Source: a virus
Lineage: Duplodnaviria > Heunggongvirae > Uroviricota > Caudoviricetes
Virus record (IMG/VR): IMGVR_UViG_3300037484_000445
Location: 323,863-387,862 of that record
Length of the DNA stretch: 64,000 nucleotides
Strand: one strand, 5' to 3'
The notes beneath the pieces are model-generated. The model had not been told where the DNA came from. It ran no database searches and saw nothing but the letters and a program-made list of their open reading frames with translations. Shown one piece after another: positions 4,713-53,435 of the stretch. Position 1 is the first letter of the stretch. Each line of letters opens with the position of its first letter. The position numbers were made by a program, and so were the translations under genes.

Positions 4713-4880
4713 ATGGGGCATGAAATAATAGCGATGGCATTTGCTGAACTACGGGGTTCCAAACGTGAACGTATTGCAGGAACCATCTACACGGTTTTTG
4801 CAATTACCCTAGGTTTAGTCATACTCGCCACATCAATCGTCGGGATTTGGTACCTCGGCCATCGTTGGGAGATCTGGTGA
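4713..4880 (+). CDS. Small membrane protein (55 aa, not in ORF track)
   Basis: MGHEIIAMAF...TIYTVFAITLGLVILATSIVGIWYLG; GGTGTA 12 nt upstream. Confidence 0.65.
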   Translation: MGHEIIAMAFAELRGSKRERIAGTIYTVFAITLGLVILATSIVGIWYLGHRWEIW

Positions 4881-4884
4881 GAAC

Positions 4885-5055
4885 ATGGACGACTTGATAG
4901 ACGGCTACACGGAACGCAAAAAGGAAATGAGAGTCAAGGCCGATAAGGCCGCTCGGGCCTTCAAGGTGTTCTTCATCGCAACCCTTGTGCTAGGGTTGAC
5001 TTTGCTGGGTACTGGGCTCTACGTAGCCTGGCATTTTCTATCCAAAGTTTGGTGA
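4885..5055 (+). CDS. Small membrane protein (56 aa, not in ORF track)
   Basis: MDDLIDGYTERKKE...VFFIATLVLGLTLLGTGLYVAWHFL. Confidence 0.65.
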   Translation: MDDLIDGYTERKKEMRVKADKAARAFKVFFIATLVLGLTLLGTGLYVAWHFLSKVW

Positions 5056-5275
5056 GCATTTGGTCCTTGGTGCGATTATCTATCAATCCTTGGACACCCC
5101 GCCCAGTGACCGTGGGCTAGTCGGGTTGCATCCCGATGAAAGTAACCGAGGTTGGTCGCTCGGAAAACCGCACCTGGGACCGGAGGTCCCGTCGGCTTGG
5201 CGGCGTAGGCTGAATCGGCTGAGAGAAATCGTTGACGTCGGAATGGCCACCAAGCACTAATTTTCACCAAACTCC

Positions 5276-5305
5276 TTAATCGCCTGTCTTGAATGTCCGT
5301 ATAGC
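5276..5305 (+). promoter_or_regulatory. Class I promoter upstream of non-coding region with solo CRISPR repeat
   Basis: TTAATC-N18-TATAGC. Confidence 0.6.
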
Positions 5306-5571
5306 CCAATGAAAGGGAGATGATCGCTTCAAAGCACCCTAGTAGCTTGCAGGTGTAACCCCTGCCTACCATCAGGCAAAAGGGAATTCCTGGTCGATTC
5401 GAACGGCCGCGATTGACCTCTGACGGTTGAAGTTCTTACGACAGCACCCTACGAAGGTGTTGAGTTACTAGCGTGCCTTGAGGTGGTCATCACGAAGATA
5501 ATCGCTTCAAAGCACCCAATCGATAGAGGTTCGAGCCCTCCGGGCTTATTCCCAACACGAATTTGAAGGCC

Positions 5572-5607
5572 GTCATCCTATGAACCGAGTCCTTTAGCTC
5601 TTCTCAC
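5572..5607 (+). CRISPR. Solo copy of the IscB array repeat
   Basis: GTCATCCTATGAACCGAGTCCTTTAGCTCTTCTCAC, 34/36 identical to the array consensus (crRNA sense on +). Confidence 0.9.
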
Positions 5608-5763
5608 CTCTGCTGTAGGGTTGGTTCAACAGTCTTCGAAAAGGTTTATTGCCTTTTCGGGAGTTGAAACGTTGCATAATTGTTTTCTCCAACAGAAGGA
5701 GAGAGCCCACCATCCAGGTCATGGCATACCCTGGATGGTGGGCTCTCCGATTAGAAAGACGCC

Positions 5764-6258
5764 ATGAGTGCCGAAGGTTTAGTTCCCGGAATGTCCAAAG
5801 ACGAGGTAGCTGCGAGACTCCAATTACGCATGGAGCGTGACGTATCACCCGAATCTACGGACGAGTTTCAAACCTCCATCGATTCCCTGATCCAAGAGGG
5901 TGAAGCGCTCGCCGCCGTAGGTAAAGTTCTCAAGGGTCTGAATCGAAGATCGGCTCTCAAAGTCCTCATCATCACGGCTATTCGCTATGATCTCTTCGAT
6001 GCCGCTAGAGAAGCTCTAGGTGTGTTGGAACGTCTCCCCAAAGAGGAACCCCCAGAAGTGTCGGACACTGCTGATTACAGCAAGTGTGCCTACTGCCCTA
6101 AGCCGACAACACGGATGCTGACCTCTCCAATGATTGTCGGGTCGAAGGGGATCCCCTTCTGTGCGGATGATCACGACGTGCAACAGACGCCCCAATACAA
6201 GGTCCTCATCGATCCTAAGTTCATAACACTTGGTGTATCACCCGAGGATGGCCAATAA
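5764..6258 (+). CDS. Hypothetical protein with C-terminal Zn-finger-like motif
   Basis: 164 aa; CAYC...CADDH. Confidence 0.7.
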   Translation: MSAEGLVPGMSKDEVAARLQLRMERDVSPESTDEFQTSIDSLIQEGEALAAVGKVLKGLNRRSALKVLIITAIRYDLFDAAREALGVLERLPKEEPPEVSDTADYSKCAYCPKPTTRMLTSPMIVGSKGIPFCADDHDVQQTPQYKVLIDPKFITLGVSPEDGQ

Positions 6259-43419: not shown

Positions 43420-43665
43420 CTACGAACCTTTGATCTCCTCAACGGATACCGGCGAACCCAATAGGGTTTCACCGCCTATCACAAACCGCTTGTCGGCAAA
43501 TAGATTGGACGCCGCCTCGTAGGCTATGTCGTTAACACTCTCGCCCTGGTTGACCTCAACCTCAAGAACGACCTGTGCCTTGCTCCCAACACGCTTACCT
43601 GAAAAGGCTAGGAATATATTGTAGGTGACTCGGTACCTCATAGGCATGTGATTATTCTCGATCAC
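43420..43665 (-). CDS. Hypothetical protein coupled to iscB
   Basis: GTG start overlaps the iscB TGA. Confidence 0.65.
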   Translation of the reverse strand: MIENNHMPMRYRVTYNIFLAFSGKRVGSKAQVVLEVEVNQGESVNDIAYEAASNLFADKRFVIGGETLLGSPVSVEEIKGS

Positions 43666-45089
43666 AAGTGGACTTCGTACCCACTAGTTCGCTCAACCAA
43701 GGTGAGCTTTCGAAACGTAATGTTGCGATCCTTGTCGGACCCAAAAACCCGGACTTGCATAGAACCCGAGGCCCTAGCCCCAACGACCCTAGCTAGAACA
43801 CCATCGGGAAGTCGAACAATGTCTCCCGTAGAGAAACCATGAGGCCGTTTGCCTAGCTCACCCCTCGACTTCTCAAGCTCACCCTTGGGATAGACTATCT
43901 CGGGCTTTCGTTGCCCTAAGCGTCCAGGGTCACGATAAAACATATGGCGTTTTCTCGGATGGCCTGGGCCAAGTTTGGCCTTAGGGAACCCGTAAGCATC
44001 GGTTTTCACCAGCTTGTGACTGCCACGCCCAATGCTCTTGATGAACAAGATCGGAATGTTCCAATACCGAATACGATCAACCTCACCCACGCAAAGGGCA
44101 TCATAGGCATGACCCTTAGGCACTCCTAGTCGCGTTCGATTCCACTTCGTTCTACCTCCGGTGCCTACAGCAACTTCAACTCCAAAGGTCTTCAGGAGAT
44201 CCCTCAAAGCCCAACGAGTCGAGTTCACAGCAGCGGCGTCCTTCAATGGAGCCTTCATCTGTGCCTTAATTCGGGCTAGGACTTTTGGCTTACCCTTGAG
44301 GAACTCCTCCAAAGGTCGATTGCTCTTCCTCAGATTACAGGGCCTGCAGGCTGTACATAAGTTGCTTACACGATCGCTGCCACCGCGGGACCTAGCCTCG
44401 ATGTGATCTAGCTCCAGAGGTACATCCTTGGCTTCACAATAGGCACACTTGTGTCCCCATTTTAGCAAGACATACTCACGCACTTCATAGCCGAACAAAG
44501 TGCCCTGTTGATACTCAACGCCTTGGATTTCAGCGTTCTCCAACTTTTGAAGGTCGAAGCGTACAAGCTCTTGCACTATGCGTGTAACAGGCACCAACTT
44601 ACTGAGACGTCTAACCCACGTCACGACGTTCTCGAGACGATTCCGAATGCTCGGTGCAAGCCAACCTTCTGGTTTGGCCCTGTGCTTGAACCTTCCACCA
44701 GGGCACTTCTCACGCTGCTTTTGATTACTAGATAGGTTCAACGGCGTCTTTCGCCGAAGACCTCCACAACGGTATCTCAAGTTGGCCGAACGGCGACGTC
44801 GGCGACACGCCGAGCGACTTTTCAGGTTGTCCCTTACCCTAGAACCCTTGTGCTCGATTTCAGCCAGGTATACGGGACGATCGTTGGCGACAACAGCCAC
44901 ACCCGTGTACTTCGATCCCGGATCCAATTTCAAGTCAAGCGGCTGCGTATGCTCTGATGTGAGCTTCTTGAGACGTATCGTGAAAGGCATACGCTTGACT
45001 ACTACGGCTTCACCACTCCGTAGAAGCTTGCGTGCCTTCTGGGGCTTGGCCGGCATCAAAGGCCTGCCTTTATAGTCTAAGCAAAACAC
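43662..45089 (-). CDS. iscB: IscB RNA-guided endonuclease (OMEGA family), CRISPR-associated
   Basis: PLMP domain (VFCLDYKGRPLMP), RuvC-I LKLDPGSKYTG, Arg-rich bridge helix RRRRRSANLRYR, GWLAPS, RuvC-II IVQELVRFD, HNH CAYC...LDHIEARSRGG...N...CN, RuvC-III GHAYDA, C-terminal GFSTGDIV. Canonical start would be GTG at 45089; an alternative in-frame ATG lies at 45470. Confidence 0.97.
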   Translation of the reverse strand: MFCLDYKGRPLMPAKPQKARKLLRSGEAVVVKRMPFTIRLKKLTSEHTQPLDLKLDPGSKYTGVAVVANDRPVYLAEIEHKGSRVRDNLKSRSACRRRRRSANLRYRCGGLRRKTPLNLSSNQKQREKCPGGRFKHRAKPEGWLAPSIRNRLENVVTWVRRLSKLVPVTRIVQELVRFDLQKLENAEIQGVEYQQGTLFGYEVREYVLLKWGHKCAYCEAKDVPLELDHIEARSRGGSDRVSNLCTACRPCNLRKSNRPLEEFLKGKPKVLARIKAQMKAPLKDAAAVNSTRWALRDLLKTFGVEVAVGTGGRTKWNRTRLGVPKGHAYDALCVGEVDRIRYWNIPILFIKSIGRGSHKLVKTDAYGFPKAKLGPGHPRKRHMFYRDPGRLGQRKPEIVYPKGELEKSRGELGKRPHGFSTGDIVRLPDGVLARVVGARASGSMQVRVFGSDKDRNITFRKLTLVERTSGYEVHL

Positions 45090-45096
45090 CCGGTGA

Positions 45097-45470
45097 GGGT
45101 GCCGTGGAGTTTCCTCTACGGCACCCTTCGGGTTTCCCCTGAGATTATCAGGGCAGCCTTGCGGCTGTGACGACGTATCAGGTAGCTGCCCAGTTACGTC
45201 ACCTCTAGGAATTGTATCAGAATGACCTTCAGGACTTGCGTCCGTCTGCTCCGCCCCGTTTCGGGATTGTTGTCTGCTGACAGAGCTTCGAGAGCCCGGA
45301 ACTGAGGAAGCATTCCGGGGTCTTATTGATATCGTTTCTGAGCACGCTTCACGTGGGGACTTGCTCGTACCACGTGATATCCTTGGACACCCTGTTAACG
45401 GATTTTTAGGTCCGTCTGAACCGAATCCTTTAGCTCTTCTCACCTCTCGCAAAGGCGTGTCCGTCTTCAT
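45097..45470 (-). ncRNA. omegaRNA-like scaffold with 5' anti-repeat (tracr-omega RNA)
   Basis: HEARO/omega-type motif CCCCGGAATGCTTCCTCAGTTCCGGGCTCT (45320-45291), CAATTCCTAGAGG, several hairpins (TCACGTGG/CCACGTGA, CAGCC-GCAA-GGCTG, GGGTGCCGT/ACGGCACCC), directly upstream of iscB. Ends are approximate. Confidence 0.85.
45417..45443 (-). ncRNA. Anti-repeat (tracrRNA-like)
   Basis: GTGAGAAGAGCTAAAGGATTCGGTTCA pairs with 27 nt of the minus-strand repeat (one G:U against the consensus). Confidence 0.92.
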
Positions 45471-45595: not shown

Positions 45596-46271
45596 GTGAG
45601 AAGAGCTAAAGGACTCGGTTCATAAGGTGACGCCGTCCTAATCGAGTTACTCACCAGGGACAAGGCGTGAGAAGAGCTAAAGGACTCGGTTCATAAGGTG
45701 ACACTCGTCCTCGTCGAGACCCCAGTCCTCCTCCTCGTTGTGAGAAGAGCTAAAGGACTCGGTTCATAAGGTGACTGGCCGTTCCGTTGTGATAGATCCA
45801 TTGGTAGATAGGTGAGAAGAGCTAAAGGACTCGGTTCATAAGGTGACTACTCAGTCTCAGTCTGACCCTTGAGGATGGCAGTAGGTGAGGAGAGCTAAAG
45901 GATTCGGTTCATAAGGTGACGGGGCACGACCTATAGCGTGTACTGGTAGGGGTGTGAGGGGAGCTAAAGGACTCGGTTCATAAGGTGACTCGTGCTTCGT
46001 GATCTCCCCGATTGGCGAAGAAGGGTGAGAAGAGCTAAAGGATTCGGTTCATAGGATGACGACCAACCAACGCTGTCATGGCTATCGTGTTGGCAGTGAG
46101 AAGAGCTAAAGGGTCCGGTTCATAAGATGACTGCTCAGTGTCACCACTGTTCTGGCAAGTTTGAGGTGAGAAAAGCTAAAGGATTCGGTTCATAAGGTGA
46201 CGAGTCTCCGACCACTGCGGTTCCAGCTCTTGTAGGTGAGAAGAGCTAAAGGACTCGATTCGTAAGGTGAC
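45596..46271 (-). CRISPR. CRISPR array, 10 repeats / 9 spacers
   Basis: 36-nt repeats start at 45596, 45667, 45740, 45812, 45885, 45954, 46025, 46096, 46166 and 46236; minus-strand consensus GTCACCTTATGAACCGAGTCCTTTAGCTCTTCTCAC; unique spacers of 33-37 nt. Strand inferred from the anti-repeat and promoter. Confidence 0.98.
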
Positions 46272-49473: not shown

Positions 49474-50778
49474 ATGAACGAACTCATCCAACTCTTCGAA
49501 CGCCAGGTCGATTACATTTCACGTCGGGAGGGCCGAGGGCTGCTTCTCGCTGTTCCTCGTCTAATTCAGTTGGTCGCTTCGGAACCTCGCCTTCGTGCAA
49601 TAGCCAAGGATCTGGAGACTGAGTATGAAACTGCCCGCCAAGAGTACCTGACTACTGACACAAGCCTGGCCGAGAGGCTCCTACAACTCTGGCAACAGCA
49701 CGAAGGTTGGTTCACGGCTGCTTGGGATGCAGCCTTGGACGCCAGTGAACATGACGAATCCATGCGGTCACTCGGGCACCCAAGCAGCATCCAGCAACTT
49801 TTGACGAGCGAACGTAACCCGACACTTTCATCCGATGGATACAAGCACGAGCAATCCCTAGTCGAAATGGTCTTGAGCCCAATGGGAATGTGGCTTGCCA
49901 ACGTCAAGAGGCAATGCCAGTCGGACACTGACAAGCAGGAGTTCGACAAGTTTCAGAGCGCATACGACCAGATCAAATTTGACCACGACGTCGCCCAGCG
50001 AATAAGATGTGCGGTTGAGCAAGTCCATGCTGGAGCCGCCTGGAGCCGCCTCGTCCGTTTTGCCCAGTCTTTGATTCCACCGAAGACCGACGATCTTGAG
50101 TCGTACATCGCAACGATCTACGAGCTTAAGGTGGCAAATACTGCGTTGGACATAGACGTAAGATATGAGCACGAGAAGGGTGACTTGGCTTCCTACCGCG
50201 CAACCATTTTCGAAGCCCTCGGCACCTTTCGTGAGGAAATGGTGCTCAGGTTCGGGTTGCACCTTTCCCACCGAGCCCTCGTAATGCGGTTCAAGACGAA
50301 ATGTGAGCGGTTCATGGCTCAGACCCTCTTGGAGCGATGCAAGGACGCGAGTCGGCCCGAAGACATCCTTACTTCCGCGGCCGCCGAGTACCTCTTTGAC
50401 CAAGGGTTGAACCCGCTTTTCAATGCTCCAATCGTGACACTTCGACCCGACTTGTTCGATCCGTCCTTGCCCCATGCCCTCTACATCGAAGCCAAGCAGT
50501 ACAACGATGGCTCCCCCAAGACTAAGGTAGTGAGGGCAACGTGGCAGGTTTGGGACACTTGGAATCAGCTAGATGGTCAGCACAAGGTTCTGGAGGCCTT
50601 CTTGCTTGTCTTTCGTCGCGGAGGTTCACTCTTAACTTTTGACGAGTGCGTCCGGTTGAATGGACGAACCCTCTACCCGATAGTCGTGGACATCGCTCCT
50701 TCCAATGCAAAGGGATCATGTGCCAAGAGCAAGTCCATTCATATCAGTGGCGAAGAGCTGCTTCCTCAGCATGCGTGA
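49474..50778 (+). CDS. Helical protein with C-terminal PD-(D/E)xK-like nuclease domain
   Basis: 434 aa; RPDLF...LYIEAKQY; GGTGTA 12 nt upstream. Confidence 0.7.
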   Translation: MNELIQLFERQVDYISRREGRGLLLAVPRLIQLVASEPRLRAIAKDLETEYETARQEYLTTDTSLAERLLQLWQQHEGWFTAAWDAALDASEHDESMRSLGHPSSIQQLLTSERNPTLSSDGYKHEQSLVEMVLSPMGMWLANVKRQCQSDTDKQEFDKFQSAYDQIKFDHDVAQRIRCAVEQVHAGAAWSRLVRFAQSLIPPKTDDLESYIATIYELKVANTALDIDVRYEHEKGDLASYRATIFEALGTFREEMVLRFGLHLSHRALVMRFKTKCERFMAQTLLERCKDASRPEDILTSAAAEYLFDQGLNPLFNAPIVTLRPDLFDPSLPHALYIEAKQYNDGSPKTKVVRATWQVWDTWNQLDGQHKVLEAFLLVFRRGGSLLTFDECVRLNGRTLYPIVVDIAPSNAKGSCAKSKSIHISGEELLPQHA

Positions 50779-52551: not shown

Positions 52552-53312
52552 TGATCTGGGACATACACCAAGAACCCCCTTGAAGCTCTTTGCTCCCTCA
52601 AGGCTATAGACCCTCTTCTAGAACACCCTCTTCGGTACGTAACCAAGGGGAGTAAGAAGTGATTGGGGCTTTTCTGGGAATTGAACAAAAATCTGTTCAA
52701 AAATCAGCGCTCTCAAAAGCTCCGTTTGCCCTCAAAACTTGCGAAGCCTACCCCAGGCCCACGGTTCGTCCTCTCCCTGGAATCAATGGGATGGGGCCGG
52801 CGGGGCGAATTCCAGCGTAGTTGGCAATACTCTGGAGAATTGGGCCAAGGGTCCTAATTTATCCCGGCCGACCGCCTTGTAGTTCTAACACCGCAAGCCG
52901 ACCGCTAATTATGGGAGAGTGTGGGATGAGGCTGTGGGTGTTACACTCCTAGTGTGAAGGTACACGGTTCACACTTTTTGAAAAATACACTGTGTGATTT
53001 TCTGAAAAATGGAGTGTGTGATCCGGAGAGGGCGAGGGCTTCGCCGAAGCCAGCTCGAAGGGGGAGCACACGGCATGCGAAGCCTGCCTGGCTTTATTGA
53101 AAGTGAGGGCCCCCGCTTGGCTACTCGATGGTTCCGAGGGAGAGGCTGAGGGGGGTCAGGACGATCCCCCTCGGGTGTGAGTAGACGGGAGCCCTCGAGA
53201 GCTACTCTACACCGGGGGGCGGTGGACGTAGATCTTTTTCTCGAGGGCCTCCACAAAATAGGGAGACCGCCCAGGTGAGGGGGATACCCGGACGGCCTCG
53301 AATCTGTCAGGG

Positions 53313-53348
53313 GTGAGGAGAGCTAAAGGATTCGATTCATAAAGTGAC
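53313..53348 (-). CRISPR. Solo copy of the IscB array repeat
   Basis: Plus strand GTGAGGAGAGCTAAAGGATTCGATTCATAAAGTGAC, 32/36 identical to consensus, in an intergenic region. Confidence 0.88.
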
Positions 53349-53435
53349 CCTCGAGTCTGACATTGGGGGGATGTTTGCCTGACACTAGCCATTACGGCTG
53401 GGCAAGGCGGGGGATAAGGGCTTCTTCAAAAAGAG

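Follow-up and report, generated by a model that had tools for sequence, protein, structure and literature searches.

Solo CRISPR repeats of a phage-borne IscB system lie at exact, motif-flanked deletion junctions and potentially act as one-guide crRNA genes against related phages

CRISPR repeats situated outside a main array are known from viral mini-arrays and solitary units (PMC6858448; review PMC11656645), whose flanks match close relatives near the locus itself. Viral mini-arrays target regions near the array in related viruses, and the carrier escapes through mutation or deletion at its own locus (Medvedeva et al. 2019, PMC6858448). Omega-RNA-guided homing of IscB and TnpB at IS200/IS605 donor joints offers a second point of comparison: the guide is the flank of the element end, the element-less allele, consisting of that flank followed by the TAM, is cut, and the element-bearing copy serves as repair template. 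Cutting by IscB of the empty site adjoining its guide flank has been described (Meers et al., bioRxiv 10.1101/2023.03.14.532601). CRISPR-associated IscB systems (DelIscB/CasIscB; Altae-Tran et al. 2021 as cited in PMC12660989) possess an upstream array, an omega/tracr RNA bearing an anti-repeat and a guide located 5' of the repeat; published accounts of these systems present an array only, without mention of dispersed single-repeat units. Solitary CRISPR repeats also occur in phage genomes as RNA anti-CRISPRs (Racr; Camara-Wilpert et al. 2023, PMC10651486), decoys that imitate the repeats of the host and whose flanking sequence is of no consequence, and CRISPR-associated transposons use delocalized (atypical) crRNAs (PMC11656645), i.e. 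array-distant guide units with a variant repeat and one fixed 'homing' target.

The two solo repeats described here, S1 and S2, belong to a huge phage that carries IscB. As in viral solitary units, a near-identical repeat is found outside the array, its flank matches related phages close to the locus, and, for S1, the carrier has no motif-flanked match. They differ from mini-arrays in that the nuclease (IscB, not a host Cas complex), the tracr and the main array are the phage's own, that one repeat is present instead of two, and that the guide consists of abutting ancestral DNA. The geometry would be that of IS200/IS605 homing, but neither TnpA nor transposon ends are involved, a bare repeat replaces DNA instead of being inserted, the scaffold would come in trans from the tracr, and the target would be a rival phage allele, not the sister chromosome. 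In contrast to Racrs, the repeat is the phage's own and its flanks carry a target signature; unlike the delocalized transposon crRNAs, with which they share the remote guide unit, the solo repeats have no transposase and would lead to cutting or to conversion of an allele rather than to insertion.

The window, i.e. the whole stretch of 64,000 nucleotides that was analysed, corresponds to bases 323,863–387,862 of a 451,925-bp huge-phage record, a 94%-complete genome. It contains an iscB gene (43662–45089, − strand), recognized by its translation, its RRXRR, HNH and HNH_5 domains and thousands of IscB relatives, and a main CRISPR array of 10 repeats (45596–46271, − strand). Upstream of iscB and on the same strand lies the 5' end of a tracr/omega RNA (45381–45447, − strand), composed of a 27-nt anti-repeat (45417–45443, − strand) and a second segment pairing with repeat nucleotides 1 and 3–8. 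The position of this anti-repeat implies that the array and the crRNA-sense repeat (GTCAC...CTCAC) are read on the − strand, and the predicted tracr pairing obtained by co-folding also supports reading the array on the iscB strand. IscB, array and anti-repeat-bearing omega/tracr are therefore found on one strand of the window, as in CRISPR-associated IscB systems, and the same layout was found in the related loci L025, L026, L038 and L041. The carrier thus possesses the cognate effector, with an intact-looking iscB, the tracr anti-repeat and the array. No Cas1, Cas2 or TnpA was found in the phage; for TnpA (Y1 transposase, PF01797) the 94%-complete genome gave no match, and no subterminal palindromes were seen in the sequence. 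Thirteen repeat copies are present in the whole 451,925-bp record: the 10 of the array, the tracr anti-repeat, S1 and S2. A search of IMG/VR with the window repeat returned only the window's own record. Array spacers of the window, L025, L038, L041 and L042, compared with the own genome and all fetched loci, gave array-to-array matches only, and the arrays and the S1 region had no usable match among INPHARED phages and PLSDB plasmids.

The sequence-only reading of this DNA had reported, 40 kb from the array, a 34/36 repeat copy with the variant end of array repeat 7, and this description holds. S1 (5572–5607, + strand, crRNA sense) matches the consensus at 34/36 positions and array repeat 7 (46025–46060) at 35/36, sharing with the latter the variant end, GTCATCCTA in crRNA sense; shuffled sequence yielded 0 matches of this type, two mismatches being allowed. 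On the + strand positions 5572–5607 read GTCATCCTATGAACCGAGTCCTTTAGCTCTTCTCAC, the reverse complement of the array repeat, so that S1 lies on the opposite strand to the array. Its assignment to the crRNA sense is valid provided that the array is read on the iscB strand, with which anti-repeat and predicted pairing agree. Its placement in a non-coding stretch was borne out as well: close strains differ by 1-nt indels (5059, 5130, 5273), which indicates that 5058–5763 is non-coding, and also by 134-nt and 78-nt indels in the S1 region. The same-strand class I promoter that had been placed about 270 nt upstream is represented by the motif TTAATC-N16-CG-TATAGC (5276–5305, + strand), located 267 nt before the S1 repeat; the ATG behind it opens a frame of 4 codons only. 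The class I motif (TTAA-N18-CGTA...) has 28 matches in the window versus 1.6 in shuffles, and this copy is conserved in the ancestral, a, b and d alleles defined below. Both solo repeats are in crRNA sense behind same-strand promoter motifs.

Pairing with the tracr was assessed by co-folding each repeat with the tracr 5' end. The predicted dG values are −61.2 kcal/mol for S1, −61.1 for the array consensus, −51.2 for S2 and −23.0 for shuffled sequence. The co-fold consists of two helices, a 27-bp duplex and the pairing of repeat nucleotides 1 and 3–8 with the tracr segment behind a small hairpin; with both helices formed, predicted pairing begins immediately 3' of the guide. The two variant bases of S1 are predicted to exchange C:G for U.G and U.G for C:G in the second helix. 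Window positions 45381–45410 together with repeat nucleotides 1–8 form a predicted three-way junction, in which variants at positions 5 and 7 (C/U) keep pairing. The flank of S1 in guide position (5536–5571, + strand), in the window's allele, is a remnant of an ancestral non-coding RNA, and the guide likely corresponds to its last 16–21 nucleotides (about 5551–5571). On the other side of the repeat, allele alignment reveals a 4-nt filler, CTCT (5608–5611, + strand), before ancestral homology resumes; CTCT also flanks the anti-repeat, at 45444–45447.

Relatives of the locus were reached via the neighbouring gene 5764–6258 and through cluster members, giving 20 further loci, to which contigs of four public DNA runs were added; no RNA run was found among the public runs carrying the sequence, and a search of IMG/VR with the flanking protein gave nothing. 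The alignment resolves five states, one ancestral and four S1 alleles, a to d. In the ancestral state (L021, L022, L043, L044) there is no repeat and the non-coding region is continuous, including a 262-nt segment absent from the window. Allele d (L028–L031, L035, L036) has the repeat in place of the last ~146 nt of this segment. In allele a (the window and, in part, run X6) the loss extends 116 nt further to the left, and in allele b (L012=L024, L023, run X1) another 134 nt are gone, namely the ancestral block that the window retains at 5438–5571 (+ strand), which starts with ACGACAG; the deletion ends at 5572. Indeed, L012, a metagenome contig with the repeat, is ~98% identical to the window and lacks precisely 5438–5571. 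Allele c (L032, L033, L034, runs X1 and X2) has its left edge at window position 4836: the missing region (4837–5571, + strand; joint 4836 to 5572), which starts with TCGTCGG, includes two small ORFs as well as the promoter and the entire RNA gene. In all four S1 alleles the right-hand breakpoint is the first base of the repeat. The repeat is 36/36 identical across alleles a, b and d (more than 10 independent contigs), which also have a common 3' junction (CAC/CTCT/GCTGTAGGG). Allele c is distinguished by a different repeat variant and a different 3' filler, and it continues downstream with a segment like that of L021; this suggests an independent event or a later conversion, and the S1 series is accordingly not one simple lineage. 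In relatives the repeat is kept and the guide differs in four alleles, the pattern which had been proposed as a check on the guide hypothesis.

An assembly artefact was ruled out, since each junction recurs in independent samples and assemblers; for allele a the exact junction depends on the record of the window, run X6 covering it in part. An origin of the deletions from microhomology or slippage was likewise rejected, because no bases are shared at the junctions and slippage between TTGAAG or GTCA copies predicts other products. TnpA-type excision was discarded in view of the missing TnpA and because the motif described below is lost with the deleted part and not left behind. A single sample can contain more than one allele: run X1 has both b and c, and ERZ27247798 has d together with the ancestral state. 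L028 has L021-like flanks and a window-like patch around S1, and L032 shows the reverse; as mosaicism is pervasive in these genomes, such recombination patches are only suggestive. Genomes with the ancestral locus carry IscB (P0163 on a 457,658-bp contig, P0170 on a 292,766-bp contig), and in L038, which shares its contig with L021, IscB is accompanied by an array of 17 repeats, S1 and S2 both being absent. L043/L044, like L021/L038, combine IscB and an array with the full non-coding RNA and have no solo repeat. This indicates that the solo repeats are derived.

The flank matches that the sequence-only reading had proposed to search for were found in related phages whose copy of this locus is unmodified. 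The 21 repeat-proximal nucleotides of the window's S1 guide are all identical in L043, where they are followed by ACGACGG, and the S1 flank also matches L021 and L028. The guide of allele b matches the window over 16/16 nucleotides, and that of S2 matches L038 over 16/16. On the other hand, the S1 guide has no motif-flanked match, full or partial, in its own genome, and the best own-genome matches of the S1 and S2 guides are 12–13 nt long, which is the level expected by chance. Approximately 32 array spacers from four strains were compared with the S1 and S2 flanks, and none matched. Between L021 and L028, the four 23-nt target windows contain about four times more differences per column (8/86) than elsewhere (20/923), in a comparison made post hoc. 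With respect to other ancestral-type alleles, L021 is altered at, or immediately beside, three of the four targets (L021:1195–1345 and L021:1450–1460): in the seed of the b site, in bases 1 and 2 of the a-site motif and at the G in the motif of the d site. These differences could be escape changes.

Inspection of the left-hand breakpoints revealed that the first 7 nucleotides lost from the progenitor fit N-Y-G-W-C-N-G at all six junctions. For S1 these are CCGTCTG in allele d (L021 has CCATCTG), ACGACGG in allele a (GTGACGG in L021), ACGACAG in b and TCGTCGG in c; for S2 they are CCGTCCG in the window and ATGTCAG in L041. A motif-agnostic test was applied, in which the summed information content was compared with that of six random 7-mers from the same loci over 200,000 draws. 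It gave p < 5e-6 with L022, L028 and L043 as progenitors and p = 1e-5 with the least favourable ones, 0–2 of the 200,000 draws being higher; in the same test the last 7 nucleotides of the guides displayed no motif (p = 0.996). The repeat-less locus of L043 contains 11 motif sites within 1,317 nt, and each of the four S1 breakpoints coincides with one. For IscB or a Cas9-type nuclease, the place taken by this motif is that of the TAM. With the motif read as the TAM, the six junctions would have the geometry of IscB homing, with the guide as element flank and the element-less allele as that flank followed by a shared motif, and N-Y-G-W-C-N-G, derived from these six junctions alone, is probably the TAM of this IscB. 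DelIscB, the one CRISPR-associated IscB that has been tested, has the unlike TAM NAC (PMC12660989). The start of the repeat, GTCAY, partly resembles the motif, from which it differs at the G and the last G, and in view of this resemblance a recombination preference may lie behind the motif.

The second solo repeat, S2 (53313–53348, − strand, crRNA sense), matches at 32/36 and is absent from L038, L039 and L040 and present in L041 and L042. The repeat-less allele of L038–L040 reads ...CCCCCAA TGTCAGACTCGAGG CCGTCCGGG. In the window, the repeat, CCC and a 12/14 copy of the 14-mer that ends the guide are inserted exactly between this 14-mer and CCGTCCG: the guide-position flank (53349–53384, − strand) ends in 16 nucleotides equal to the repeat-less allele, where they are followed by CCGTCCG, and behind the repeat (53289–53312, − strand) come CCC, the 12/14 copy and CCGTCCG. 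The two mismatches of the copy are at −7 and −12 from the motif. In L041/L042, from a genome with S1 allele c, the S2 allele is 15 nt shorter, the loss again ending at the repeat edge. S2 thus consists of two alleles built as those of S1. With the same pattern at two unlinked loci, the view that illegitimate recombination with the array merely dropped a repeat, later deletions being the ordinary decay of a dispensable region, becomes highly improbable. Loss of about 1 kb is indeed tolerated in allele c and these genomes are mosaic, but the right-hand end is the same base in all four deletions, a 7-nt motif is common to six left breakpoints (p ≤ 1e-5), and the repeat has not decayed. The junctions, the motif and the L043 sites already make such a neutral relic strongly disfavoured.

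The copy behind S2, together with its motif, would also constitute a candidate partial target in the phage's own genome, which bears on another explanation: a solo repeat could be a decoy, i.e. an RNA anti-CRISPR titrating a host or rival nuclease, or a regulator that steers IscB to a partial own-genome site and represses transcription. Solitary phage repeats are known as RNA anti-CRISPRs (PMC10651486, PMC11656645), and the 12/14 guide-end copy with motif behind S2 could permit binding without cutting. We nevertheless consider this explanation unlikely. A decoy needs no particular flank, yet the motif signature is present at 6/6 junctions; the L041 S2 allele has lost the matching guide. The only other near-match of the S2 guide end (11/12, followed by TCGTCAG) occurs at genome position 252111 on the − strand, 71.7 kb before the window; it is antisense inside a long ORF and was judged to be probably a chance match. 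The partial PAM- or TAM-adjacent own-genome match that characterizes regulatory crRNA-like RNAs (scaRNA, tracr-L, CreA, crlRNA) was not found for S1. Of the two roles envisaged in the sequence-only reading, the regulatory one, analogous to scaRNA/CreA, is therefore not sustained for S1, neither a full nor a seed match with motif being present in the phage's own genome, and the role of stand-alone guide, employed in trans by tracr/IscB, has the best support, the predicted pairing of S1 being equivalent to that of the array consensus.

We accordingly propose, with moderate confidence, that S1 is a one-guide crRNA gene of the phage's own IscB–tracr system, serving interviral exclusion or homing-like allele replacement. 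As the repeat replaced the 3' part of a non-coding RNA gene, the upstream DNA (about 5551–5571) came into spacer position. The class I promoter at 5276 would transcribe guide and repeat, and the guide would recognize the unmodified or less-deleted locus of related phages, flanked there by N-Y-G-W-C-N-G, the carrier itself not being a target since the repeat occupies the place of the motif. In a cell infected by both phages, IscB guided by the cassette would cut the unmodified allele, and the rival phage would either be excluded or have its locus converted by recombination with the carrier. Each further deletion from the repeat edge to another motif site would create a new guide hitting all earlier alleles, and S2 would be a second unit of the same kind. 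That such a unit would be transcribed, processed, loaded and used for cleavage, that the motif would serve as TAM, and that the phage would draw any advantage from it are inferences. Two further features argue against the guide reading: the guide of allele d lies mostly inside a 21-bp stem of the old RNA, and the transcript would need 130–380 nt of 5' trimming.

The exact junctions could have arisen in two ways, either as rare exact deletions selected because they create a new guide, or from a cut repaired with an array 'spacer + repeat'. Since chance deletions exact at both ends and then selected would be rare, a repair mechanism is favoured, and it would generate the same structures without present function. 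The main rival explanation, possible if somewhat doubtful, is that the solo repeats are repair scars: a related phage or the phage itself had array spacers against the locus, IscB cut by the motif, and the break was mended from an array 'spacer + repeat', an existing solo repeat providing the second homology arm in later events, so that the repeat would be the footprint of escape and not a working guide. The exact protospacer/motif-boundary and repeat-edge junctions would then require no rare chance events, in a phage without Cas1, Cas2 and TnpA. The short fillers after the repeats (CTCT, AACCTCAAT, CCC) look as if copying had entered the next spacer, and these, like the 14-nt duplicate of the target end that S2 retains behind its repeat, favour a repair origin; the repeat variant of allele c, moreover, is close to array repeats of other strains. 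That 0 of the ~32 array spacers from four strains match the flanks does not favour it, and for a scar without function one would not expect a repeat still 36/36 identical and predicted to be fully tracr-competent across diverged backgrounds, nor a sense orientation behind promoters at both loci. Scar and guide are not mutually exclusive, as such a scar is automatically a guide gene where IscB and tracr are present.

We conclude that the sequence flanking each solo repeat is probably a genuine IscB target, which would make each unit at least potentially a one-guide crRNA gene against the unmodified allele. We tentatively extend this to the possibility, which we hold with less conviction than the guide function itself, that the IscB system itself makes and spreads solo repeats, a TAM-adjacent cut being repaired by protospacer–repeat fusion without Cas1–Cas2, in an RNA-guided allele drive. 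If so, the fusion would at once be a new guide against every genome with the old sequence, and the ratchet of nested deletions would carry the loss of conserved genes through the phage population. If the guide function proposed for S1 is correct, it would represent a natural phage-versus-phage role for a CRISPR-associated IscB, at a stage between transposon homing and Cas9 immunity, and a route to new guides for a system without Cas1–Cas2. It would also account for the finding that the targets of viral mini-arrays in related viruses lie directly next to the position of the array itself: a series of nested-deletion alleles anchored at the repeat would provide a concrete reason for the 'proximity' left unexplained in PMC6858448. 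The allele series predicts the TAM of this IscB from natural variation alone, and the same analysis is applicable to other phage-borne nucleases.

The RNA displaced by S1 deserves a separate description. The 262-nt segment missing from the window is 95% identical between L021 and L022, versus 63% for the adjacent gene and 74% for the downstream spacer. The 21-bp long-range stem of this RNA encloses the later 'guide' and has undergone compensatory change in L043 and L022. High conservation and a compensated stem suggest that the S1 repeat replaced the 3' part of a functional structured RNA. The RNA is approximately 600 nt long and lies behind the class I promoter (L021:1080–1680, L043:2260–2900), with remnants at window 5306–5571. 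It has a T-arm-like hairpin (GAGGTTCGAGCCCTC) and is progressively deleted by the S1 alleles; Rfam, in gathering and E-value modes, and ARAGORN found nothing relevant in the window or in L021.

Other structures are found nearby. Upstream of the class I promoter, window 5090–5240 is a second structured stretch with three hairpins, which have fully compensatory changes in L030, L043 and L044 (e.g. GCCCAG/GTGGGC to AGCTCG/CGAGCT) and whose G.U pairs point to the + strand. A 78-nt block (5671–5748), located shortly ahead of the start of gene 5764–6258, folds into a very strong hairpin; the window, L021, L022, L032 and L043 have this block, and alleles b and d lack it. Between the array and S2, a 434-aa ORF (49474–50778) is without close relative in the related phages, the next best having 47% identity, and appears to be strain-specific cargo.

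The arrays themselves are polarised (window 45596–46271; L038:15710–16871; L041:14425–14814): iscB-distal spacers are common to strains, some with point changes, and tracr-adjacent spacers are different in every strain, although the phage is without Cas1 or Cas2. Two shared array spacers are shorter at their repeat-adjacent end in one strain. In a related huge phage (L026:9000–10000; NCBI JBFOMY010000030.1, 448,843 bp) IscB is 72% identical to that of the window. Its repeat, for which a search of public collections found nothing, is entirely different from the window's and is accompanied by its own matching anti-repeat, which indicates that repeat and tracr have co-evolved within this phage group.
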